Positions 4,600 through 53,192 are shown, numbered from the whole stretch's first letter. The stretch: 61,871 nt of DNA, filler included, from 6 parts of 6 records of this genome joined end to end with filler, not necessarily neighbours in it, one strand, 5' to 3'. The notes: generated from the sequence alone by a model not told the origin. Translations and numbers: made by a program.

Positions 4600-5241
4600 A
4601 TGAATAAATTTAATACACTTCTTCTTCAGACAGGAATAATATTCATATTTATCGCAATAGTAGGATGTAATAAAGATGATAATACCGAAACACCTCCAGA
4701 CCAAACAAATGGAACTTTTACGGATACTCGTGATGGTAATTTATATTCTTACAGCAAAATCGGTGATCAAATATGGATGACAGAAAATCTGACATATAAA
4801 GCCAACCAAGGTTGCTTGGCATACGACAATGATGAAAGCATTGCTGAAGATTACGGATATTTATATGATTGGGAAACTGCTGTTAATATCTGTCCCGACG
4901 GCTGGCATTTACCTACTGATCCAGAATGGCAGGAATTAATTGAATATCTTGGTGGTGAAGAGGTTGCCGGAGGAAAGATGAAAGAAGAAGGCACTTCTCA
5001 TTGGGGTGCGCCTAATACCGGAGCAACAAATTCCAGCGGATTTACCGGCCTACCGGGCGGAAATTATTCAATTTATGGTTTTCAGGGTCTTAATGGAGGA
5101 GGTCACTTTTGGTCTTCAACTCCACTTAATAACGCTGCAAAATCCTATTCACTTTATTACGATCATATAACAATTGGTTACGGAGTTAGTTCTTCAAAAG
5201 ATGTGGGTAGCAGCATAAGATGTGTTAAAAATGATAAGTGA
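4600..5241 (+). CDS. FISUMP (Fibrobacter succinogenes major paralogous domain) lipoprotein
   Basis: lipobox IVGC; FTDTRDGN.Y...KIGDQIWMTENL, YG.LYDWE, CPDGWHLPT..EW, N.SGF.GLPGG, SIRCVK. Confidence 0.85.
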   Translation: MNKFNTLLLQTGIIFIFIAIVGCNKDDNTETPPDQTNGTFTDTRDGNLYSYSKIGDQIWMTENLTYKANQGCLAYDNDESIAEDYGYLYDWETAVNICPDGWHLPTDPEWQELIEYLGGEEVAGGKMKEEGTSHWGAPNTGATNSSGFTGLPGGNYSIYGFQGLNGGGHFWSSTPLNNAAKSYSLYYDHITIGYGVSSSKDVGSSIRCVKNDK

Positions 5242-5327
5242 GTTTATTTTATAAAGAAAATGTCAATACGTGAGGTAATCAAGTAGACGCCCCGGTAAAA
5301 TAATGCAAGCCGGTTAAAATTATTGAA

Positions 5328-6038
5328 ATGCCAATAAATTTGATATTATTAAATAAAATTGCTGGAAAAGTCTTAAATCCAATCATGAGTTATTTGTTTC
5401 CTAAATGGTGGAAAGAACGAAATGAATTGGCATACTGGAAAATGAAAAAAAGAGAAGAAAAGACTTTATCGAATTTACACTATGAATTTTTTTATACTAC
5501 ACATTTTGGAATCGACAAATCAACATACAACAATAAAGTACTTCTCGATTTAGGGTGTGGTCCGAGAGGAAGTCTTGAATGGGCTAAAAATGCAAAAAGA
5601 AGAATTGGATTGGATCCATTATCAGCACAATATTTAAAATGGGGTGCGGATAAGCATGAAATGGAATATATGACCTACGGATCAGAACATATTCCCCTTG
5701 AGGACGGCGAATGTGATGTGATTTTCTCTTTTAACTCATTAGACCATGTTGAAGATGTTTTTGCAACAGTTAATGAAATAAAGCGCTGTTTATCTCCCAC
5801 CGGGTTCTTTTTACTGCTTGTAGAGGTTAATCATCTTCCAACAGCATGTGAGCCACATACATTAACGCCAAAGGGTATTTTAGCATTATTTAATCCTGAA
5901 TTTGAAGCTCAATTGGTTAAAGTGTATAAGCCTAAAGCAAATGGAATGTATCAATCTATCAAGTTAGGCGATACTTATTCTAATGCTTTAAATTGTCAGG
6001 AAGTTGGATGGTTCTCCGCCAAATTTGTGAGAAAATGA
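5328..6038 (+). CDS. class I SAM-dependent methyltransferase
   Basis: motif I VLLDLGCGPRG, IGLDP, DVIFSFNSLDHV; start could be 5385. Confidence 0.85.
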   Translation: MPINLILLNKIAGKVLNPIMSYLFPKWWKERNELAYWKMKKREEKTLSNLHYEFFYTTHFGIDKSTYNNKVLLDLGCGPRGSLEWAKNAKRRIGLDPLSAQYLKWGADKHEMEYMTYGSEHIPLEDGECDVIFSFNSLDHVEDVFATVNEIKRCLSPTGFFLLLVEVNHLPTACEPHTLTPKGILALFNPEFEAQLVKVYKPKANGMYQSIKLGDTYSNALNCQEVGWFSAKFVRK

Positions 6039-6208
6039 CGATTACTAATAGAGTAAACGGTCCCGGCCCTATATAACCGTTTTGAAGGGCTTGCTGAAAA
6101 AATCTGTTGAGTGTTTTGTCGTGAGATTTTATGAAACGTACCATAAAAACTTGACTTCGAATGGTAAAATGCATATTTTTACCATTCAAATTCAAAAACA
6201 AAAAAATC

Positions 6209-7135
6209 ATGAAATCCGACAATTATTTTACTTTTTCAGGTTTTGTAATTATTCAGCTTGTTTTGTTATTGTTTCTTACCAGCCCAAATACGCTGCTTGC
6301 TCAAAACATTAGCAGTATAGAAATTACGCCGAGCAACCCTACCATGAATGTTGGTGACACCCAAACTTTCGTGGCAGAAGGTTTTGATCAGGATGGAAAC
6401 CCGATTACTATCGCCGATCCCAATTGGGAGACTGATGCGAATTTTGGTGATTATGTGGTTAATCCGGACAACCCTGCCCAGTGCACATTTACGGCAACTG
6501 CTGAAGGTAACAGCTATATTTTGTGTTATGAAGGCCCTCCCGGTCAAGCTACTGTTCATGGTTCAACAGATATCACCATTACCGACGGAGGCCAGCAACT
6601 CACAACAATTGAGGTTACACCAAGTAATGCTACCATGAATGTTGGTGACACACAAACATTCGTTGCAGAAGGTTTCGATCAGAATGGCAACCCTATGACC
6701 ATTAGTCCGCAATGGTCAACTACAGGCGGAACCATCAATACGTCAGGAGAATACACCGCTACTACCAAAGGTAATTTTACGGTTACAGCCACAGTTGATA
6801 GAAACAGTGTGGAAGGGTTTGCATCGGTTACGGTTAACAGCACCGGTGTTGGTGAGCATGCTTCATCCGCTAAGTTCAGATTATTCCCGAATTACCCCAA
6901 CCCTTTCAGGTCTGAAACAACCATCCATTTCTACATACAAACAAATGATCATATCATTTTAAAAATTGTAAATCAATGGGGTCAGGAAATATCAGTACTC
7001 GCTGATTCGCAATTTGCACCCGGTACGCATAAAATTATTTTTAGCAGGAGCGGTTTGGCTCCGGGGATTTATTATTACACAATCCGCACCAACAACTTTT
7101 TTGATATCCAAAAAATGGTGGTTTTGAAATGGTAA
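6209..7135 (+). CDS. T9SS type A sorting domain protein with two Ig-like (Big_2-like) repeats
   Basis: signal peptide; duplicated IE.TPSN.TMNVGDTQTFVAEGFDQ.GNP; C-terminal NYPNPF...TTI.F...L.PGIYYY...KMVVLK; ATG at 6209 preferred over ORF start 6161. Confidence 0.8.
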   Translation: MKSDNYFTFSGFVIIQLVLLLFLTSPNTLLAQNISSIEITPSNPTMNVGDTQTFVAEGFDQDGNPITIADPNWETDANFGDYVVNPDNPAQCTFTATAEGNSYILCYEGPPGQATVHGSTDITITDGGQQLTTIEVTPSNATMNVGDTQTFVAEGFDQNGNPMTISPQWSTTGGTINTSGEYTATTKGNFTVTATVDRNSVEGFASVTVNSTGVGEHASSAKFRLFPNYPNPFRSETTIHFYIQTNDHIILKIVNQWGQEISVLADSQFAPGTHKIIFSRSGLAPGIYYYTIRTNNFFDIQKMVVLKW

Positions 7136-7493: not shown

Positions 7494-8645
7494 ATGAGGA
7501 AGCCCAAAATCACACTGGCCTACGACGAACATCGCAACCGCGGGGTGGTGAGTTTGTGTTTTGAGAAGGATTTTGCGCTGATCAACAAAGTAAAAACCAT
7601 CCCCGGCACCGCCTGGAGCCAGAGCAAGGGTTGGTGGTACATCTTTAAGGAAGACTTTAATTTGGGGAAAGTTTTCGATGTTTTATCGCCGGTGGCTTAT
7701 TTGGATTATTCGGCATTGAAGGATGAACCATCCGCTCCTGTGACCATTAAAAAACCGGAAGGCAGAAAAAAAATTGTACCTGGTGATTTATCAGAGCAGC
7801 ATCAACAGGAACTTGACAGGTTCAAACGCTGGATGTTGCAACAACGCTATGCCGCAAACTCCATTAAAATTTACCAGTATTGCCTGTCCAATTTCTTCCG
7901 GTTCTACCCGAAAAAGGCAATCGATGAAATCAATAACCGGGATATCGAAAAATTCAATCTTGACTTTATTCTCAAAAACGGTTATTCATCCAAAACCCAA
8001 AACCAGTACATCAGTGCCATAAAAACCTTTTACCTGAAGATGAAAGGCACCAACCATACGTTGGCAAAACTCGAACGCCCCATCGAAGGACAAAAGCTCC
8101 CAAAGGTACTTGCTATCGAAATGATAAAAAAGATGATCGAAGGCATTTCAAACATCAAACACAAAACCGCACTCACAACAATTTATGCACTTGGGCTACG
8201 GCGCAGCGAATTATTAAACCTGAAATTAAACCACATCAGTTTAGAAAGGGATGTTGTGGAAATCATTAATTCAAAAGGAAAAAAAGACAGAGACCTGCCT
8301 TTGCCCAGAAGCTTGAAGCACCTTATCACAACATACCTCCGGCAGTTTGAACCCCGGATTTGGCTTATCGAAGGACAGAAGCCTGAAACACAGTATTCGG
8401 CTACAAGCCTCGAGAAGATTTTCAAGAAAAATTTGGCAAGGGTTACCAAAGATGATACTTTTACACTTCACTGTTTACGACATAGTTATGCAACACACCT
8501 TCTTGACATGGGCGTTGATTTGCGGATCATACAGGAACTACTTGGGCACAAAAGTTCCAGAACTACTGAAATTTACACGCATGTGAGTATGAAAAATTTA
8601 AAAAACGTAAAAAATCCATTGGATCAATTTGGAGGCCTGGCATGA
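7494..8645 (+). CDS. tyrosine recombinase/integrase (integron-like, lacks the IntI-specific insertion) with an extra N-terminal domain
   Basis: catalytic residues GLRRSE (R), SKGKKDR (K), HCLRHSYATH (H-x-x-R), LLGH, TTEIY (Y); SAM-like core-binding region. Confidence 0.92.
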   Translation: MRKPKITLAYDEHRNRGVVSLCFEKDFALINKVKTIPGTAWSQSKGWWYIFKEDFNLGKVFDVLSPVAYLDYSALKDEPSAPVTIKKPEGRKKIVPGDLSEQHQQELDRFKRWMLQQRYAANSIKIYQYCLSNFFRFYPKKAIDEINNRDIEKFNLDFILKNGYSSKTQNQYISAIKTFYLKMKGTNHTLAKLERPIEGQKLPKVLAIEMIKKMIEGISNIKHKTALTTIYALGLRRSELLNLKLNHISLERDVVEIINSKGKKDRDLPLPRSLKHLITTYLRQFEPRIWLIEGQKPETQYSATSLEKIFKKNLARVTKDDTFTLHCLRHSYATHLLDMGVDLRIIQELLGHKSSRTTEIYTHVSMKNLKNVKNPLDQFGGLA

Positions 8646-8665
8646 AAGAGTTTGAAATAAAAACA

Positions 8666-8738
8666 ACAAAAGGTGAACATATCCACAGCATGATGTTGGA
8701 TATGGTTACAAAAGGTGTACACATAAGAAGTTGTGCGG
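8666..8738 (+). other. putative attI-like primary recombination site
   Basis: direct repeats ACAAAAGGTG(A/T)ACA at 8666-8679 and 8708-8721; inverted repeat CATATCCA/TGGATATG; core GTTGTGCGG at 8730-8738, whose reverse complement closes the first cassette at 15623-15631. Confidence 0.6.
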
Positions 8739-8750
8739 CATACAAAGAAA

Positions 8751-8846
8751 GCCCACGCGCAAACAGGCACATTTGGTTTTTGCCGACACGCAAAGCCAAC
8801 GCTGAAAAACCAAAAGAGCCTGTTTTTTTTGCTAACGCTCGGACAG
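8751..8846 (+). repeat. structured repeat copy 1 (GCCAACGC-flanked hairpin)
   Basis: AAACAGGC/GCCTGTTT and TTTGGTTTTT/AAAAACCAAA stems; same architecture as 15509-15606. Confidence 0.55.
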
Positions 8847-8887
8847 AAACGATGAAATTTGAAACTGATAAAAAGAACTTAAAATAA

Positions 8888-10435
8888 ATGGCAAAAAAGA
8901 ACGGAAACGGAACGGAAGAACCGTTGGAAAAGCAACTCTGGAAATCGGCTGACAAGCTGAGAAAAAACATTGATGCTGCGGAGTATAAGCACGTAGTGCT
9001 CGGACTGATATTCCTGAAATATATTTCGGATGCATTTGAAGAACTTTACAACAAACTAAAGGCGGGAGAAGGTGAATATGCAGGTGCCGACCCAGAGGAC
9101 AAAGACGAATACAAAGCTGAGAATGTATTCTTCGTGCCAGAGAAAGCCCGTTGGTCTTATCTGCTCTCACAAGCCAAACAACCTACCATTGGTAAATCGG
9201 TAGATGAAGCCATGGACTTCATTGAAAAGGAAAACGTTTCGCTGAAAGGCGTTTTGCCCAAAGTATATGCCCGACAAAACCTTGACCCAACCAGTTTGGG
9301 TGAACTTATAGACATGATTGGAAACATTGCCTTAGGTGATGCCAAAGCCCGAAGTGCAGATATTCTAGGACATGTATTTGAATATTTCTTGGGTGAATTT
9401 GCCCTGGCAGAAGGTAAAAAGGGAGGACAGTTCTACACGCCAAGAAGCGTTGTAGAATTATTGGTTGAAATGTTGGAGCCATATAAAGGCCGTGTTTTTG
9501 ATCCTTGTTGTGGGTCAGGTGGAATGTTTGTGCAGTCTGAAGAATTTGTAACCGAACACCAAGGGAAAATCAATGACATTTCCATCTACGGACAAGAAAG
9601 CAATCAAACCACCTGGCGACTGGCCAAAATGAATTTGGCCATTAGAGGCATTGATAGCTCGCAGGTGAAATGGAACAACGAAGGCTCGTTTTTGAATGAT
9701 GCCCACAAAGACCTGAAAGCAGATTACATCATTGCCAACCCACCGTTTAACGTGAGCGATTGGAGCGGTGATTTGCTGCGCACCGATGGCCGCTGGAAAT
9801 ACGGCACACCACCTACAGGCAATGCCAACTACGCCTGGATTCAACATTTCATGTATCACCTTGCACCTAGCGGACAAGCGGGTTTTGTGTTGGCAAAAGG
9901 GGCTTTAACTTCTAAAAGTGGCGGTGAAGGTGACATTAGAAAAGAACTGGTGGAAGCCGATTTGATTGATTGTATTGTAAATCTGCCCGCCAAGTTGTTT
10001 TTGAATACCCAGATTCCTGCTTCGCTTTGGTTTATGAGCCGTAACCGAAGCAATGGCAAATTCCGAAACCGAACTGGAGAAATTCTCTTTATTGATGCCC
10101 GCAACTTAGGGCATTTGATCAACCGCAGAACCAAAGTACTTTCTCCCGAAGATATTGAGCAGATTACCAGCACTTACCACAACTGGCGAAATGTGGATGG
10201 CGATTATGAAGATATAAAAGGCTTCTGTGCATCTGCCACCAAAGCACGGGTAGCCGACCTGGACTATGTACTCACCCCTGGCCGATATGTTGGCTTGGCT
10301 GAGGAAGAAGATGATTTTGACTTTGCGGAACGCTTTACCAGCCTGAAAGCTGAGTTTGAGGCGCAACTTATAGAAGAAGCTCAACTCATTGAACGCATTG
10401 CCGCTAACCTTCAAAAAGTGAAAATTGATGAGTGA
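8888..10435 (+). CDS. hsdM: type I restriction-modification methyltransferase subunit M
   Basis: [30 protein letters not shown], catalytic NPPF. Confidence 0.95.
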
Positions 10436-11642
10436 GTGGAAGGAAGTTGGACTTGGAGAATTATGTGACGTTCGGGACGGAACACATGATTCACCGAAAG
10501 AGGTTACTCATGGTAAAAAACTTATAACTTCTAGACATATTAAAGGAGGGAAAATAGATTTTGGAACTGCTTATGAAATCTCTTTTGAGGATTATGAGTT
10601 TGTGAATAGGAGAAGTAAAGTAGATCAATTTGACGTTCTATTCTCAATGATAGGCACAATCGCAGAAACAGTTGTGGTTGATTTCAAGCCTGACTTTGCC
10701 ATTAAAAATGTGGGTTTGTTTAAAACAGGAGGTGATGAAAACCTAGCCAAATGGGTATACTACTATTTAAAGTCTACTGAGGCTAAAGCAGAAATTTATG
10801 CTTCGTTAAAAGGATCAACTCAACAATACATTACACTTGGTGATTTAAGAAAATTCCCAATTAAATTTCCTGATGAGTCAGTTAGGAGCAAAATCATTGA
10901 AGTCCTTTCCAGCTTAGACGACAAAATAGACCTGCTGCACCGCCAAAACCAAACCCTGGAGCATATGGCGGAGACACTGTTTCGGCAGTGGTTTGTGGAG
11001 GAAGCGGATGATAATTGGGAAGTATTACAATTACAGGATATTGCAGAAGTGAAAAATGGTTTTGCTTTTAGTAGCAAGTCATATGTTGATTATTCACCCG
11101 AGCATTTGGAAGTCTTAAAAATGGGGCATATCGAAAAAGGTGGTGGTTTGCGGACCAACCCCAAAAGAGATTATGCCCCAAGAGAAGAACGACTTGAAAG
11201 GTATATTTTAGATAAAGGGGACATTGTAATGGCAATGACAGACATGAAAGACAATGTTGTCATTTTAGGTGTTCCGGCTATAATTGATGAAAGTGGCAGA
11301 TACGTTCTTAATCAACGTGTAGCAAGAATCTCTTTAAAAAATAGAGACAGCTTAATAAATGAGTATCTGCTTTATGTGCAGCTTAAAGACCCTGATTTTA
11401 TTGCTGAATTACAAAGTAAAGCAAACAGTGGAGTACAAGTTAATTTGTCTACAGCATCAATAAAGGAAAGTGAAATACTTATACTGCCAATGGAATTGCA
11501 ACTTGAGAAAGGCAACTCTATTACGGACTTATACTTGAAGAAAGAGTATAACGACAAGCAAATAAAAAGTTTAACCAAACTGAGAGACACATTACTTCCT
11601 AAATTGATGAGCGGTGAAATCCGATTATTTGAAAATGGATAA
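10428..11642 (+). CDS. hsdS: type I restriction-modification specificity subunit S
   Basis: two TRDs; conserved spacer [30 protein letters not shown]-terminal [13 protein letters not shown]. Confidence 0.93.
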
Positions 11643-12279
11643 ACTAAGGAAGGTCATAGAAGAACATCCTGATTGGGATTTTTTAGGCGATTACGTTGAG
11701 CGAATAGTCACCTATAAGGAACTGGACTTTAGCCTTTCTTTTGAAAATGCGAAAGCCCTTCTGGAATCTACTGGTAAGGAGATTTGTCGTAAAGGAGGTA
11801 CTGATTTAAAGAAGAATTCTACTCTAAACGGGGTTATGAAGCAAGCGTTTAGTTCCTTAGGATTTACAAAAAGTGATATGATTAGACAGGTGTCAACTTC
11901 ATTAGCAACAATTGGTCAACAGATTGGCAACTTAAGAAATGATATTGGTTCGACAAGTCATGGAAAATCTGCTGATGAGATAAGGGACCGAAACAATAAA
12001 ATTGACAGTCTATCAAAAGACTTTTTAATTGATTCTATCGAAATAGTCTGCCTTTACCTAATAAGAAACAGTGAACTAAAAATTAATAACACGCCAACAA
12101 CTGGAACAGATTTAGACGTGCCTTATGCAAATGACAGCATGTTTAATAGTTGGTGGGATGAACAATTTGGTGAGTTCGAAATGGGAGTCTATTCCTACCC
12201 TGCAAGTGAGATTCTATTCAATGTAGATAAACAAGCCTATGTAAACGAATACAAAGCATACACCGAAACAGAAGAATGA
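11635..12279 (+). CDS. abortive-infection C-terminal (Abi_C / HEPN-like) protein
   Basis: ENAKALLES..K.I and LRNDIGSTSHG (R-N-x-H HEPN-like motif); overlaps both hsdS and hsdR. Confidence 0.7.
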   Translation: MDKLRKVIEEHPDWDFLGDYVERIVTYKELDFSLSFENAKALLESTGKEICRKGGTDLKKNSTLNGVMKQAFSSLGFTKSDMIRQVSTSLATIGQQIGNLRNDIGSTSHGKSADEIRDRNNKIDSLSKDFLIDSIEIVCLYLIRNSELKINNTPTTGTDLDVPYANDSMFNSWWDEQFGEFEMGVYSYPASEILFNVDKQAYVNEYKAYTETEE

Positions 12280-15200
12280 CAAGAATAACTGAACATAGTA
12301 TAGAAGATTTTGCCATCAAACTGTTAGAGCATTTGGGTTATGAATACATCTACGCCCCAAGCATTGCCCATGATGGCGAAAATCCAGAGCGGAGTTCATA
12401 CGAAGAAATCCTGCTCACCCATCGCATGGCAGAAGCGGTACGAAGAATAAATCCTACCGTGCCGCCTGCTTCACAGGAAGAAGCTATCAAAGAGATTCAA
12501 CGTATTCATTCGCCAGAATTATTGACCAATAATGAAAGCTTTCATCGCTTATTTACTGAAGGCATCAAAGTGAGCTATCAAAAAGATGGACACCAAAGAG
12601 GTGATTTAGTATGGCTAATCGACTTCAATACACCTGAAAACAATGATTTTATTGTTGCCAATCAGTTTATGGTGGTAGAAGATGGCGTAAACAAACGCCC
12701 TGATGTTATTCTGTTTGTCAACGGTATTCCTTTGGTGGTAATTGAACTCAAAAATGCAGCAGATGAAAACGCCACCATTAAATCTGCTTTCCGGCAGATA
12801 GAAACTTACAAAGCCGTTATTCCAAGTCTGTTTACTTATAATGCATTAACGATTATTTCGGACGGATTGGAAGCCAAAGCAGGAACGCTTTCATCGGGCA
12901 TGAGCCGTTTTATGGCTTGGAAATCAGCAGACGGCAAAGAAGAAGCATCGCACTTGGTGAGCCAAATGGAAACGCTCATCAATGGCATGCTCAACAAAGA
13001 AACCTTGCTGGATTTGGTTAGGCATTTCATTGTGTTTGAAAAGTCGAAAAAGGAAGATGCGAAAACAGGTGTCACCACTATTTCAACCGTTAAGAAATTA
13101 GCTGCTTATCATCAATACTATGCCGTGAACCGAGCCGTGGAATCGGCTATGCGTGCCACAGGACACACTATAGAAAAAGAAACGCCAACCAGTATGGTGA
13201 TGGAATCACCAGAAAGCTATGGTGTGGCTGGTGTAAAATCACAAATTAAAGGTGACCGAAAAGGTGGTGTAGTTTGGCATACCCAAGGAAGCGGTAAATC
13301 CCTTTCCATGGTGTTCTTCACAGGCAAAATCGTGTTGGCTTTGGACAATCCTACCGTTGTAGTCATCACCGACCGTAACGATTTGGACGACCAACTCTTT
13401 GACACATTTGCTTCTTCCACTCAGTTATTGCGTCAAGAACCCAAGCAGATAGAAAACCGAAACGACTTAAAGGTAAAATTGCAAGTCGCTTCAGGTGGCG
13501 TGATTTTTACCACCATTCAAAAGTTCTCGCCTGAAGAAGGCAACGTATATGAAACGCTTTCTGAACGAGAAAACATTGTGGTGATTGCCGATGAAGCACA
13601 CAGAACCCAATACGGTTTCAAAGCCAAAACAGTAGATGAGAAAGACGAGCATGGCAATGTGATTGGAAAGAAAACCGTGTATGGGTTTGCTAAGTACATG
13701 CGTGATGCTTTGCCCAATGCTACTTATATCGGTTTTACTGGAACACCAATTGAAAGTACCGATGTAAACACACCTGCCGTTTTCGGAAACTACATTGACG
13801 TCTATGATATTGCTCAGGCAGTTGAAGACGGAGCAACGGTTCGCATTTACTACGAAAGCCGTCTGGCTAAAGTGAACCTAAGCGAAGAAGGCAAAAAGCT
13901 GGTAGAGGAACTGGATGATGAGTTGGACGGTGAAGAACTCACCGAAACCCAAAAAGCCAAAGCCAAATGGACGCAGTTGGAAGCATTAATTGGCAGTGAA
14001 AACAGAATCAGGAATGTAGCCAACGACATCATTCAACATTTTGGCCAACGCCAAGAAGTATTTGAAGGCAAGGGAATGATTGTGGCCATGTCAAGAAGGA
14101 TTGCCGCTGACTTGTATGCCGAAATCATCAAACTAAAACCTGAATGGCATTCTGATGATTTGGACAAAGGCGTGATTAAAGTGGTGATGACTTCTTCATC
14201 TTCCGATGGACCAAAAATTGCCAAACATCATACTACCAAGCAACAGCGAAGAACCCTTGCCGACCGAATGAAAGACCCAGACGATGAGTTGAAACTGGTG
14301 ATTGTTCGGGATATGTGGCTTACTGGTTTTGATGCACCAAGCATGCACACGCTTTACATCGACAAACCGATGAAAGGTCACAACCTGATGCAAGCCATTG
14401 CAAGGGTAAACCGAGTTTACAAAGACAAGCCTGGCGGTTTGGTCGTGGATTATTTGGGTATCGCTTCTGATTTGAAAAAAGCACTATCGTTCTATTCAGA
14501 TGCAGGTGGAAAAGGCGACCCAACCATTGCCCAAGCCCAAGCCGTTGAATTGATGCTTGAAAAACTGGAAGTGGTTTCGCAGATGTACAGCGGTTTTCCA
14601 TATGAAGATTATTTCCAAGCAGAAACAGGACAAAAGCTTTCCATGATTCTGGCAGCCGAAGAACACATTCTCGGACTGGAAGACGGTAAGAAAAGATACA
14701 TCAATGAAGTAACTGCCTTATCCAAAGCCTTTGCGATTGCCGTTCCGCATGAGCAAGCGATGGACGTGAAAGATGAAGTTTCATTTTTCCAAGCCGTAAA
14801 AGCACGGTTAGCAAAGTTTGACGGAACAGGTTCAGGGAGAACAGATGAAGAAATTGAGACCACCATTCGCCAAGTCATAGATCAAGCCTTGGTTTCGGAA
14901 CAGGTGATTGATGTCTTTGATGCGGCAGGAATTAAGAAACCAGACATTTCCATTCTATCCGAAGACTTCTTGATGGAACTCAAAGGGATGGAACACAAGA
15001 ATGTGGCGCTGGAAGTTTTGAAGAAACTGCTCAACGATGAAATAAAGGCACGTTCTAAAAAGAACTTGGTTAAGAGTAAGTCGCTCAAAGAAATGTTGGA
15101 GAATTCTATCAAGAAATACCACAACAAAATTTTGACGGCTGCTGAAGTGATGGACGAACTCATTAAGCTGAGTAAGGAAATCGTAAACATGGACAGTGAA

Positions 15201-15503
15201 GCCAAAAAGCTTGGACTGACTGACTTTGAATATGCGTTCTATACTGCAGTAGCCAACAACGATTCCGCCAAACAACTCATGCAGCAAGAAAAGCTGAGAG
15301 AACTGGCGGTGATTTTGACCGAAAGAGTAAAGAAAAACGCATCCATCGACTGGACAATTAAGGAAAGTGTAAGAGCGAAATTGAAAGTAATCATCAAACG
15401 GACATTGAGACAATACGGCTATCCACCAGACATGCAAAAACTGGCGACAGAAACCGTTTTAAAACAAGCGGAGATGATTGCGAAAGAATTAACAACAGAC
15501 TAA
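12276..15503 (+). CDS. hsdR: type I restriction endonuclease subunit R
   Basis: RPDVILFVNGIPLVVIELKN nuclease; WHTQGSGKS, DEAHR, GFTGTP, MWLTGFD, LMQAIARVNR helicase motifs. Confidence 0.95.
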   Translation: MTRITEHSIEDFAIKLLEHLGYEYIYAPSIAHDGENPERSSYEEILLTHRMAEAVRRINPTVPPASQEEAIKEIQRIHSPELLTNNESFHRLFTEGIKVSYQKDGHQRGDLVWLIDFNTPENNDFIVANQFMVVEDGVNKRPDVILFVNGIPLVVIELKNAADENATIKSAFRQIETYKAVIPSLFTYNALTIISDGLEAKAGTLSSGMSRFMAWKSADGKEEASHLVSQMETLINGMLNKETLLDLVRHFIVFEKSKKEDAKTGVTTISTVKKLAAYHQYYAVNRAVESAMRATGHTIEKETPTSMVMESPESYGVAGVKSQIKGDRKGGVVWHTQGSGKSLSMVFFTGKIVLALDNPTVVVITDRNDLDDQLFDTFASSTQLLRQEPKQIENRNDLKVKLQVASGGVIFTTIQKFSPEEGNVYETLSERENIVVIADEAHRTQYGFKAKTVDEKDEHGNVIGKKTVYGFAKYMRDALPNATYIGFTGTPIESTDVNTPAVFGNYIDVYDIAQAVEDGATVRIYYESRLAKVNLSEEGKKLVEELDDELDGEELTETQKAKAKWTQLEALIGSENRIRNVANDIIQHFGQRQEVFEGKGMIVAMSRRIAADLYAEIIKLKPEWHSDDLDKGVIKVVMTSSSSDGPKIAKHHTTKQQRRTLADRMKDPDDELKLVIVRDMWLTGFDAPSMHTLYIDKPMKGHNLMQAIARVNRVYKDKPGGLVVDYLGIASDLKKALSFYSDAGGKGDPTIAQAQAVELMLEKLEVVSQMYSGFPYEDYFQAETGQKLSMILAAEEHILGLEDGKKRYINEVTALSKAFAIAVPHEQAMDVKDEVSFFQAVKARLAKFDGTGSGRTDEEIETTIRQVIDQALVSEQVIDVFDAAGIKKPDISILSEDFLMELKGMEHKNVALEVLKKLLNDEIKARSKKNLVKSKSLKEMLENSIKKYHNKILTAAEVMDELIKLSKEIVNMDSEAKKLGLTDFEYAFYTAVANNDSAKQLMQQEKLRELAVILTERVKKNASIDWTIKESVRAKLKVIIKRTLRQYGYPPDMQKLATETVLKQAEMIAKELTTD

Positions 15504-15508
15504 GAAAT

Positions 15509-15606
15509 GCCAACGCTCAACAGCCACACACATTGCCAAGCCGCTCAAAGCAACCGCACTAGCCAAAGCTTGTCAAAGAGTGTGTCTGAGCCAACGCACG
15601 GACGAA
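15509..15606 (+). repeat. structured repeat copy 2 (GCCAACGC-flanked hairpin)
   Basis: GCCAACGC at 15509 and 15590; imperfect stems CACAC/GTGTG and TTGCCAAGC/GCTTGTCAA with the same ACA/AGA internal loop as copy 1. Confidence 0.55.
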
Positions 15607-15622
15607 AAAAGAAAAAGTACGA

Positions 15623-15758
15623 CCGCACAACATTGTGTATAAGCAATAGCGGGTTTAGTGCTATTTCGAAATGTAAAACTATAAATCAAAGGTCGGTGCT
15701 ATCTGACAGTTCAGTGGTTTAAATCCGCTACTGCTCATACACCGGACCGTTACCATTC
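15623..15758 (+). other. attC-like recombination site (long imperfect inverted repeat)
   Basis: CCGCACAAC ... GTGTATAAGCAATAGCGGGTTTA (15635-57) / TAAATCCGCTACTGCTCATACAC (15720-42), 20/23 complementary ... GTTACCATTC. Confidence 0.75.
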
Positions 15759-15771
15759 ATTTAAAACGACG

Positions 15772-16761
15772 ATGAAACTAACAATTTACATAACGTTACT
15801 ATTCTTTTCATTCCAGGCATTTGGACAGAAAAAGCCATTTCGAGAGAATATCGAAACTGACTCTTCAACGATTGAAATAATTAGGAATTCAGTTTACAGA
15901 TGTTATTATGAGACTTACAAGTTTAAAGATTCGATTTGGACTAACATTACATTCATAGATGATACGACTCAACTTAATACTGAGGGGTGGAAAACAAAAT
16001 CAAAAAAATATTTAGGCATTTAGAAAGAATATAACAGACAAGGTGAATTAATGTATACATGGAATCATGAGACTGGAGTATGTGAAGTTAATAAGACACT
16101 TTATCCACATCATGATTTGCTTGAGCAAATGAAACTAAAAGCAGACAGCTTAATAATATCAGCTTATAGTCAAGAGTTTTTTGATAATCATGTAAGATTT
16201 GAAAATGATGGGTCCTCTTATGATAAAGATGGTTATGTTGGTAGTTGGACAGAACCTTTTAAACGAAAACCAACAGAATTTCTTTTTAGATATAGTGTCA
16301 AACTTGCAACATCTGATTGGTATACTGAGATGATTGTAATAAATTTAGATTCATTGGGGCGTTACATACCAAGCATTGATGATAGATGGAATAGATATGG
16401 ATTTGAAGAAGTAATGGGAGATAAAAAAACATTTAATATTGATATTCAAAAAGCAACGGAAATTGCTCAAACTCATGGATTAGTGTTCACTGACACAAGT
16501 GATATATCAGAATTCTTGACATGGGAGAACTTTAAAAAACAGACATTCTATAATGGACAGTTCCGATATTATATAACTGAATTAACGGGTAAAGAGGAAT
16601 ACACGGAAGGAAATGACAGAAAAGGAATAATATTTAGATTTAATGTATATTCTTTTAATCCTTGGACTGGAGAATTTATTGAAAAGAAAAAGATGAAATC
16701 AAGACGTGAGTGGGGAAAGCACAGTGGACATTCAACTGGATTAATGCCTGACAATAAATAA
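15772..16761 (+). pseudogene. secreted hypothetical cassette protein interrupted by an in-frame TAG at 16021
   Basis: ORFs 15772-16023 and 16051-16761 are in the same frame; read-through gives YLGI*KEYNRQGELMY (probably TGG>TAG); N-terminal signal peptide. Confidence 0.7.
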
Positions 16762-16766
16762 AAAAC

Positions 16767-16776
16767 GAATGGTAAC
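16767..16776 (+). other. left (AAC) end of the next attC-like site
   Basis: GAATGGTAAC is the exact reverse complement of GTTACCATTC (15749-15758), 5 nt after the cassette gene stop. Confidence 0.7.
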
Positions 16777-16802
16777 AACTAAGCGTCCTGCCTGGTTGCA
16801 AA

Positions 16803-16902
16803 NNNNNNNNNNNNNNNNNNNNNNNNNNNNNNNNNNNNNNNNNNNNTTAATTAATTAANNNNNNNNNNNNNNNNNNNNNNNNNNNNNNNNNNNNNNNNNN
16901 NN
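16803..16902. other. artificial contig linker
   Basis: N-run + TTAATTAATTAA + N-run. Confidence 0.98.
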
Positions 16903-24862: not shown

Positions 24863-24962
24863 NNNNNNNNNNNNNNNNNNNNNNNNNNNNNNNNNNNNNN
24901 NNNNNNTTAATTAATTAANNNNNNNNNNNNNNNNNNNNNNNNNNNNNNNNNNNNNNNNNNNN
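24863..24962. other. artificial contig linker
   Basis: N-run + TTAATTAATTAA + N-run. Confidence 0.98.
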
Positions 24963-36585: not shown

Positions 36586-36685
36586 NNNNNNNNNNNNNNN
36601 NNNNNNNNNNNNNNNNNNNNNNNNNNNNNTTAATTAATTAANNNNNNNNNNNNNNNNNNNNNNNNNNNNNNNNNNNNNNNNNNNN
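36586..36685. other. artificial contig linker
   Basis: N-run + TTAATTAATTAA + N-run. Confidence 0.98.
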
Positions 36686-46055: not shown

Positions 46056-46155
46056 NNNNNNNNNNNNNNNNNNNNNNNNNNNNNNNNNNNNNNNNNNNNT
46101 TAATTAATTAANNNNNNNNNNNNNNNNNNNNNNNNNNNNNNNNNNNNNNNNNNNN
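46056..46155. other. artificial contig linker
   Basis: N-run + TTAATTAATTAA + N-run. Confidence 0.98.
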
Positions 46156-53092: not shown

Positions 53093-53192
53093 NNNNNNNN
53101 NNNNNNNNNNNNNNNNNNNNNNNNNNNNNNNNNNNNTTAATTAATTAANNNNNNNNNNNNNNNNNNNNNNNNNNNNNNNNNNNNNNNNNNNN
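53093..53192. other. artificial contig linker
   Basis: N-run + TTAATTAATTAA + N-run. Confidence 0.98.

Follow-up and report, generated by a model that had tools for sequence, protein, structure and literature searches.

The stretch of DNA analyzed here (the window; 61,871 nt) consists of several contigs joined through N-linkers. At the end of its first contig (positions 1-16802), it carries a tyrosine recombinase gene, a docking site and a short array of gene cassettes separated by a long imperfect palindrome. This platform is an integron-like gene-cassette device of Bacteroidales, and the copy in the window is small and truncated, comprising two cassettes and a single complete hairpin site (Table 1). 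A first-pass annotation had proposed a cassette array driven by a recombinase other than IntI. The recombinase, the ends of both units and the intervening palindrome all lie where it placed them, and the recombinase gene precedes the array on the same strand, all downstream genes being encoded on the plus strand. The array is cut off by the end of the contig at 16802, and an N-linker follows from 16803; the second hairpin site stops after 26 nt because the contig ends there. For comparison, searches for recombinase relatives yielded 8 and then 14 recombinase loci from species genomes, 51 loci from metagenomes and paralogous platforms on two complete chromosomes (loci are designated L; G001 is the genome of L001, from whose phylum genomes were sampled).

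Table 1. Features of the recombinase platform and its cassettes (positions in the window)
Feature	Coordinates	Strand	Details
Tyrosine recombinase, 383 aa	7494..8645	+	Pfam Phage_integrase, Phage_int_SAM_4
N-terminal domain of the recombinase, residues 1-77 (~77 aa)	7494..7724	+	predicted beta-beta-alpha-beta-beta-alpha-beta fold
attI-like docking site	8660..8732	+	direct repeats 8669-8682 and 8711-8724 around an inverted repeat; closing GTT 8730-8732
Cassette 1, Type I restriction-modification unit, 7019 bp	8730..15748	+	start GTTGTGCGG (8730); complement CCGCACAAC (15623) opens its own hairpin site
hsdM, methylase subunit	8888..10435	+	Pfam N6_Mtase 1.4e-109, HsdM_N
hsdS, specificity subunit	10425..11642	+	Pfam Methylase_S, two stretches
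Abi_C-domain protein between hsdS and hsdR	11614..12279	+	Pfam Abi_C 7.8e-10
hsdR, restriction subunit	12276..15503	+	Pfam HSDR_N, SWI2_SNF2, T1RH-like_C
attC-like site 1, 129 nt	15623..15751	+	sole complete site in the window; model R1, 111 bits, E 9e-25
Site 1, R''	15623-15631		CCGCACAAC, followed by 3-nt spacer
Site 1, left arm	15635-15657		followed by 62-nt loop
Site 1, right arm	15720-15742		followed by 6-nt spacer
Site 1, GTT	15749-15751
Cassette 2, body 1028 bp	15749..16776	+	start GTTACCATTC (15749); end GAATGGTAAC (16767-16776)
Open reading frame, 83 aa, in cassette 2	15772..16023	+	no known family
Open reading frame, 236 aa, in cassette 2	16051..16761	+	no known family
attC-like site 2, first 26 nt	16777..16802	+	cut by contig end

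The recombinase

The recombinase is composed of an extra N-terminal domain, a SAM-like core-binding domain and a catalytic domain. Its catalytic candidates R236/R237, K261-264, H326, R329, H352 and Y361 are invariant among 32 relatives. The protein scores under every NCBIfam cut-off, with XerA (184.8 bits, cut-off 220), XerD (170.2 bits, cut-off 329.6) and the IntI model TIGR02249 (161.5 bits, cut-off 265) as the best matches and XerC at 157.4 bits (cut-off 335). Judged by these curated scores, the enzyme would not qualify as XerA, XerC or XerD. The solved relatives are, best first, archaeal XerA (4a8e, 134 bits), IntI4 in two stretches and XerD.

Integrons are defined by IntI. The match to TIGR02249 is split: the recombinase and its relatives from three genomes align to the model solely over profile positions 2-181 and 235-314, with every one of these relatives under the cut-off. 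The motifs KGKKDR and HCLRH, between which the first-pass annotation had read no IntI-specific segment, are both present, and the segment is indeed missing. In a BLASTP alignment with IntI1 of pKJK5 (25% identity), a 43-residue gap in the query lies opposite the IntI-specific domain, and this insertion is missing in every family member examined. By its sequence, the enzyme falls outside the definition of the IntI family, which turns on this additional domain.

In a phylogenetic tree, the window protein lies inside a clade of nine family rows supported at 100/100, and the IntI1-like rows lie outside it. The IntI sample in this tree comprised five rows, none of them less than 74% identical to IntI1, and at least one "Xer-like" row is probably a wrong open reading frame (branch length 10). 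The earlier expectation that the protein would fall outside the IntI clade is thus borne out relative to the few IntI1-like rows sampled and does not extend to the deeper tree. The protein family includes well over 120 clusters at E < 1e-100, among them one from cultured Sunxiuqinia elliptica, and its clusters are named merely "site-specific integrase", "XerD" or similar.

The extra N-terminal domain is present in all family members and absent from IntI and Xer proteins. Pfam assigned no family to this domain, save DUF5710 in some duplicated forms. A second copy is present in longer recombinases of 457-486 aa (L002, L004, L009, L012 and L090/L091). A structural model of the domain (predicted local distance difference test score, pLDDT, 90.8) matched the N-terminal domains of T4 UvsW (Z 6.1) and XPB (Z 5.7 and 5.5) and the HARP domain of SMARCAL1 (Z 3.9, root mean square deviation 2.0 over 49 residues), where Z < 8 may reflect a common arrangement according to the comparison tool; the best Foldseek E values were 0.06-0.16. 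The N-terminal domains of UvsW and XPB and the HARP domain bind branched or forked DNA. A branched-DNA-binding fold would suit the recognition of a hairpin, and we regard this modeled similarity as a lead only.

Docking site and cassette ends

The sequence of ~85 nt past the recombinase stop codon is conserved in nine loci, where two direct repeats flank an inverted repeat, and similarity ceases exactly at the GTT with which the first cassette begins. The same design is kept in ~50 further loci with more distant recombinases. Near-identical docking sites are followed by different first cassettes in L018/L019, L020/L023, L036/L037/L038/L055, L057/L058, L061/L062/L063/L065 and L044/L049, as well as in L090 and L091, which are located on one chromosome. 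No two of the 43 readable first-cassette starts are identical. A site beside the integrase gene, with the first cassette joined at a GTT core, is what constitutes attI in an integron. The content downstream of homologous recombinases is variable, not fixed, and the palindromic boundaries recur, in keeping with the first-pass annotation. Of the 14 recombinase loci from species genomes, 10 end inside the gene or within 200 nt past it, as would be expected if the arrays are variable or repeated.

Two loci depart from the usual layout. In L059 (1322-2699), the docking site is located ~1.4 kb 3' of the recombinase gene with other sequence between them, compared with the usual spacing of 85 nt. L014 (3637-6608 and 10001-11155) carries two tandem platforms on one contig; the upstream one combines a remnant recombinase gene with a docking site of its own (GTT at 5301) and a single cassette, and the second recombinase gene lies downstream. 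In the window, an open reading frame at 8642-8887 (81 aa) was rejected as spurious: it extends across both the cassette junction and the docking site, and loci differ in its 3' part. A scan for promoters and terminators between the recombinase gene and cassette 1 gave nothing exceeding shuffled sequences.

As read from the sequence, the two ends of each window cassette are complementary, over 9 of 9 positions in cassette 1 and 10 of 10 in cassette 2. The complementarity of GTT...AAC ends within units, first noticed in the window, recurs in the related loci. Among 17 related-locus cassettes with a known upstream boundary, the variable hexamer after GTT is the exact complement of the hexamer before the cassette's own AAC in 16, window cassette 1 being one of them; in the 17th, an intervening short site holds the exact complement. 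The 9.8-kb region of the window contains 287 exact inverted 9-mer pairs compared with 216 in shuffled sequences, and five pairs of the form GTTn6...n6AAC. By themselves, the two end pairs of the window are within chance; their significance lies in their position and their recurrence in related loci (16/17). The end rule could be walked through four successive cassettes in each of L090 and L091. The start of the cassette (R') follows the pattern GTT-R-nnnn-C-A/C-A. In integrons, the R' core consensus is GTTRRRY, and 4 of 43 first-cassette starts fit it.

Cassettes also recur in different contexts. One and the same cassette of ~300 bp occurs as a tandem pair in L090 and as a single copy in L091, there behind a different neighbor. 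A 31-kb contig from another metagenome (run X3) is ~93% identical to the window over 8728-10445 and 10899-15630; the similarity stays between the ends of cassette 1 and is bounded within 2 nt of them. The sole part of cassette 1 unmatched in X3, window 10445-10899, falls inside the variable region of hsdS, and its position points to an exchanged target-recognition domain. In assembled contigs, we found no credible joints of circles or empty sites, a few joints having sides of 21-22 nt; a result from contigs only says nothing for or against excision.

Hairpin sites

Site 1 has arms of 23 nt with three transition mismatches and the two fixed A.C mispairs of the family. Its folding energy is unremarkable (z about -1), and the stem is not followed by a T-run. 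A profile built from the first sites gave 21 hits in related loci, two of which lay in duplicate loci, and so 19 distinct hairpin sites, all on the recombinase strand. Measured from the first base of the 9-mer that ends in AAC through the closing GTT, the sites are 128-132 nt long in 17 of 17 cases. Covariance model R1 found no further hairpin sites in the other contigs of the window.

To score pairing, 33 sites were aligned with MAFFT without fitting of structure, and 19 stem pairs were examined, with the partner slid by 1-3 columns as a control. Pairing was kept in 82.2% of alignment cells compared with 33-40% in the slid controls, and 173 cells had changed on both sides compared with 33-61. 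The covariation score was 0.666 versus at most 0.127 when slid, and 0 of 500 shuffles attained 0.666. One-sided changes of the G-U type are nearly absent in the stem, which suits pairing in DNA. Two A.C mispairs of the top strand (G.T in the bottom strand), 4 bp apart, are fixed in 28 and 32 of the 33 sites, and the AAC and GTT ends are kept in 30-33 of them. The sites thus combine an imperfect palindrome of AAC...GTT polarity with complementary cassette ends, as integron cassettes do. When the site was circularized by adding the start of its own cassette, the bottom strand folded better in 18 of 22 cases, by a mean of 2.4 kcal/mol. At the junction, docking and hairpin sites have only the GTT in common; the flanks read ..AAGAA in attI and ..ACC in attC.

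A second type of cassette-end site, ~50 nt long with a 7-bp hairpin, was observed in L001 (~13101-13150), L008 (~11120-11181) and L092 (~13700-13765). In two of these three cases, the short site is followed by a start GTTGAAC..., and the same start follows the docking site of L046. From these sequences, the ~50-nt site may mark the ends of arrays or constitute a distinct site class. In L001, a group II intron considered after cassette 2 was rejected: there was no Rfam match, and the open reading frame encodes a DDE transposase. In L091, two identical insertion sequences (minus strand, 9318-10874 and 12710-14266; 518-aa transposase with DUF772 and DDE_Tnp_1_6) occupy the expected closing-GTT positions of two different hairpin sites, and their location suggests an element that targets hairpin sites. 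Some insertion sequences target attC sites of integrons.

Distribution

When the covariance model of the hairpin was scanned over the phylum of G001, as the first-pass annotation had advised for Bacteroidota, it matched 83 of 151 sampled genomes. A recombinase match at E <= 1e-40 was obtained in 109 of 301 sampled genomes of that phylum, and the N-terminal domain was covered in 32 of the 301. Two Chryseobacterium plasmids carry full-length homologs; on the plasmid of C. oryzae ADR-1 (NZ_CP094530.1) we found a docking site and one cassette.

A truncated relative was observed in L094, the Acinetobacter baumannii plasmid p34AB (4639-6830), where tet(X3) is located directly behind a recombinase gene whose remaining core is 47.6% identical to a Chryseobacterium family member. 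The resistance gene is preceded by a GTT-led junction and followed by AAC and a left-arm-like sequence with no right arm; the two ends are not complementary. By its sequence, this context may be a cassette remnant carried off by an IS91-like element.

Proposed mechanism and alternatives

The architecture, the complementarity of the ends, the covariation of the hairpins, the variability of the first cassettes and the cassette common to two arrays are observed. We consider it likely that they reflect cassette capture on the integron principle by a different recombinase lineage, as the first-pass annotation had suggested in calling the platform analogous to, and distinct from, canonical integrons; the docking site, the end rule, the covarying hairpins and the failure to fit the IntI definition all agree with that proposal. 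The enzyme would be a recombinase of the Xer/IntI superfamily without the IntI insertion and with an extra N-terminal domain, its gene located directly upstream of its own docking site. A mobile cassette would begin with GTT at its 5' end, carry between one and several genes in a common orientation and close with a hairpin site of ~130 nt. The cassette would leave as a circle when two consecutive sites recombine at their GTT cores and would be inserted at the GTT of the docking site. In the circle, the first nine bases of the cassette would pair with the nine bases that open the hairpin site, and this pairing would complete a folded single-stranded substrate, most likely of the bottom strand. 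Because the partner sites share only GTT and no identical overlap, exchange is probably confined to one strand, with replication resolving the junction in the manner of integrons. The recombinase as catalyst, the choice of strand, the formation of circles and the resolution by replication are inferred.

Several observations weigh against this mechanism. It is adjacency only that points to the recombinase as the catalyst. Hairpin sites were matched in a larger share of the sampled genomes than full-length recombinases, which speaks against a strict one-enzyme picture, and another enzyme could serve many sites. Arrays are also present beside broken recombinase genes, namely an internal deletion in L006 and remnants in L007 and L008; since the arrays persist there, the recombinase may seldom be active or may be provided in trans. 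In the assembled contigs, which were the only material searched, no recombination product was seen. The bottom-strand preference is modest, and in 3 of 22 sites the top strand is favored. Classical integron cassettes are smaller than the 6-8 kb reached by some cassettes here. The fold matches of the N-terminal domain stay under the reliability level of the comparison tool. Finally, the backbone of the recombinase tree is unresolved, with long branches, and leaves undecided whether the family is placed beside IntI, Xer or neither.

That last point bears on the alternative closest to our proposal, in which the platform is a classical integron with a divergent IntI that is devoid of the extra domain and with ordinary attC sites. 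Polarity (AAC...GTT), end rule and hairpin plan are identical in the two, PF13495 is common to the recombinase and IntI1-like proteins, and IntI4 is the third best solved relative. In addition, the accessible part of Smyshlyaev et al. (PMC8138268) describes the insertion as "not fully conserved" in the integron-like subgroup; the same part, however, holds the IntI-specific domain to be essential for integron function, namely for dealing with folded attC sites. The domain is missing in all members examined here, and all of them carry an N-terminal domain absent from IntI; moreover, the best scores are to XerA and not to IntI, the supported clade of the window protein excludes the IntI1-like rows, and GTTRRRY fits few first-cassette starts. 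Taken with this evidence, a classical integron is unlikely. The cargo of the arrays, largely defence genes, could alternatively belong to a defence island laid down beside an Xer-like recombinase, with immobile units, palindromes that are terminators or repeats and an incidental complementarity of the ends. The hairpin does lie 3' of stop codons, as a terminator would, its folding z in the window is unremarkable, and two end pairs are what chance allows. Such an island is, however, difficult to reconcile with exact hexamer complements in 16 of 17 cassettes, a break in similarity exactly at GTT, one cassette shared by two arrays, a constant site length, fixed mispairs and a stem with no T-run past it, and we regard it as quite remote.

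Exchange of the Xer/dif type, in which double strands recombine between short duplex cores as proposed for the pdif modules of Acinetobacter plasmids, is suggested by the nearest named relatives, which are Xer proteins. In the pdif system, modules are bounded by inverted sites. Here, the flanks of attI and attC differ and the hexamers after GTT vary among cassettes; GTT alone being common to the partner sites, there is no shared duplex core with an identical overlap, and no short dif-type core emerged, although no dedicated search for dif patterns was made. The stem sequence varies freely while its pairing is kept, which points to an intrastrand fold and not to a sequence-specific duplex site, and dif-type exchange is thus very improbable. 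A phase-variation shufflon would have the recombinase invert segments of hsdS and move no cassettes. Tyrosine recombinases adjoining hsdMSR are the usual layout of phase-variation switches, and the window and the X3 contig have different variable regions in hsdS. However, there is a single hsdS, the 132 inverted pairs of the region include no inverted hsdS repeats, and this recombinase family also stands at the head of arrays whose cargo is entirely different; a shufflon is scarcely credible.

Cassette capture by a non-IntI recombinase could have a broader meaning, which we put forward tentatively and as somewhat short of probable: Bacteroidota would own an integron lineage beyond the IntI definition, in which an Xer-like enzyme, with an N-terminal domain that binds DNA structure-specifically in place of the insertion, recombines folded hairpins of ~130 nt.

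Relation to known systems

The closest likeness is to sedentary chromosomal integrons, with Vibrio cholerae as the model. The two share a docking site adjoining the integrase gene, a GTT core at which crossover takes place, complementary cassette ends, imperfect hairpins of ~130 nt with unpaired spacers and strand asymmetry, and mostly co-oriented genes of unknown function together with toxin-immunity and anti-phage cargo. Some chromosomal integrons have intI co-oriented with the array. Unlike integrons, the platform has an N-terminal domain instead of the IntI-specific domain, an R' other than GTTRRRY, two fixed A.C/G.T mispairs in place of extrahelical bases, a site length that is nearly constant over distant hosts and cassettes of up to 7-8 kb. 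Defence cargo in integrons is treated in the accessible part of a preprint by Darracq et al. (10.1101/2024.07.02.601686), which lists Bacteroidota among the clades earlier found without integrons. According to the sections available, IntegronFinder 2.0 reported one complete integron in Bacteroidetes (PMC9024848) and Ghaly et al. (PMC8618304) listed Bacteroidota among the phyla with integrons. Surveys that rest on the IntI definition have recovered almost no integrons in Bacteroidota. This scarcity, like the poor fit of first-cassette starts to GTTRRRY, lends indirect support to the first-pass expectation that tools based on IntI and attC would probably miss such platforms.

With Xer recombinases (XerA, XerC/D and XerH), which are its closest named and solved relatives, the platform enzyme shares the same two-domain core. 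It differs from them in scoring under all Xer cut-offs and in its extra N-terminal domain, and its partner sites are long covarying hairpins that share only GTT and not 28-bp duplex cores of the dif type.

A third comparison is with the nearest observation in print, the aph(3')-IVb resistance unit of Riemerella anatipestifer (AAC 2026, PMC13148043). The available part of that report describes a 27-bp 5' leader and a 140-bp 3' region folding "analogous to attC", states that the unit integrates without flanking homology by a mechanism "yet to be fully elucidated", and cites lnu(H) 2018 and RATA 2024. Compared by this description only, the unit resembles the cassettes of the platform in its Bacteroidota host and its dimensions; unlike the present platform, the report names, as far as that part goes, no recombinase or docking site. 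Among full texts outside most subscription journals and without supplements, no publication on arrays of cassettes following recombinases of this family came to light.

On the tentative reading of a separate integron lineage in Bacteroidota, the capture of cassettes on a folded strand would not require the IntI domain. With sites in more than half of the sampled species, the phylum would then use the platform as a main route for storing and exchanging defence systems, and the platform could be the origin of the homology-free resistance cassettes of Riemerella and perhaps of the tet(X) context on Acinetobacter plasmids. A cassette logic without the IntI-specific domain, given the matches to its sites in 83 of 151 genomes, would in any case revise current estimates of the range of cassette capture. 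If the proposed mechanism is right, the platform would explain the movement of defence genes, and possibly of resistance genes, in Bacteroidota of gut, marine and sediment habitats. It would also give a second system for the question of how a tyrosine recombinase recognizes a hairpin, and the cultured carriers (Chryseobacterium plasmids and Sunxiuqinia elliptica) make it testable at the bench.

Cargo and surrounding sequence

Cassette 1 encodes HsdM, HsdS and HsdR domains in one operon, which is the makeup of a Type I restriction-modification system, and its presence indicates that the platform is at least partly a store of anti-phage defence. Over the related loci, cassettes are 279-7818 bp in size, and the longest open reading frame is co-directional in 22 of 25. 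The cargo of related arrays includes Type I and Type III restriction-modification systems, McrBC, a DndB-like protein and a Barstar-like pair, as well as redoxin, TPR and RlaP proteins; numerous other cargo genes belong to no known family.

Upstream of the platform, at 4600-7135, the window contains genes for a Fib_succ_major-domain protein, a methyltransferase and a protein with a Por_Secre_tail sorting domain, a content that fits a Bacteroidota host. The contigs of the window are joined at 16803-16902, 24863-24962, 36586-36685, 46056-46155 and 53093-53192 by runs of 44 N flanking the linker TTAATTAATTAA; as these joins are N-linkers, neighbors across them are not physically linked.

Rfam yielded merely two sub-threshold matches to microRNA models in the window region, both on a nearby hairpin, and no match at gathering score in five related loci. 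C/A-rich hairpin elements are located at 8761-8825 and 15509-15590 of the window, both with the motif GCYAACGC, which has eight matches in the window compared with 1.2 expected. L002 and L011 have similar elements close to where their restriction cassettes end, and no Rfam family accounts for them. The C/A-rich elements coincide with large depth spikes and loose ends in contigs from several metagenomes, which indicates that they belong to a high-copy family of short repeats.

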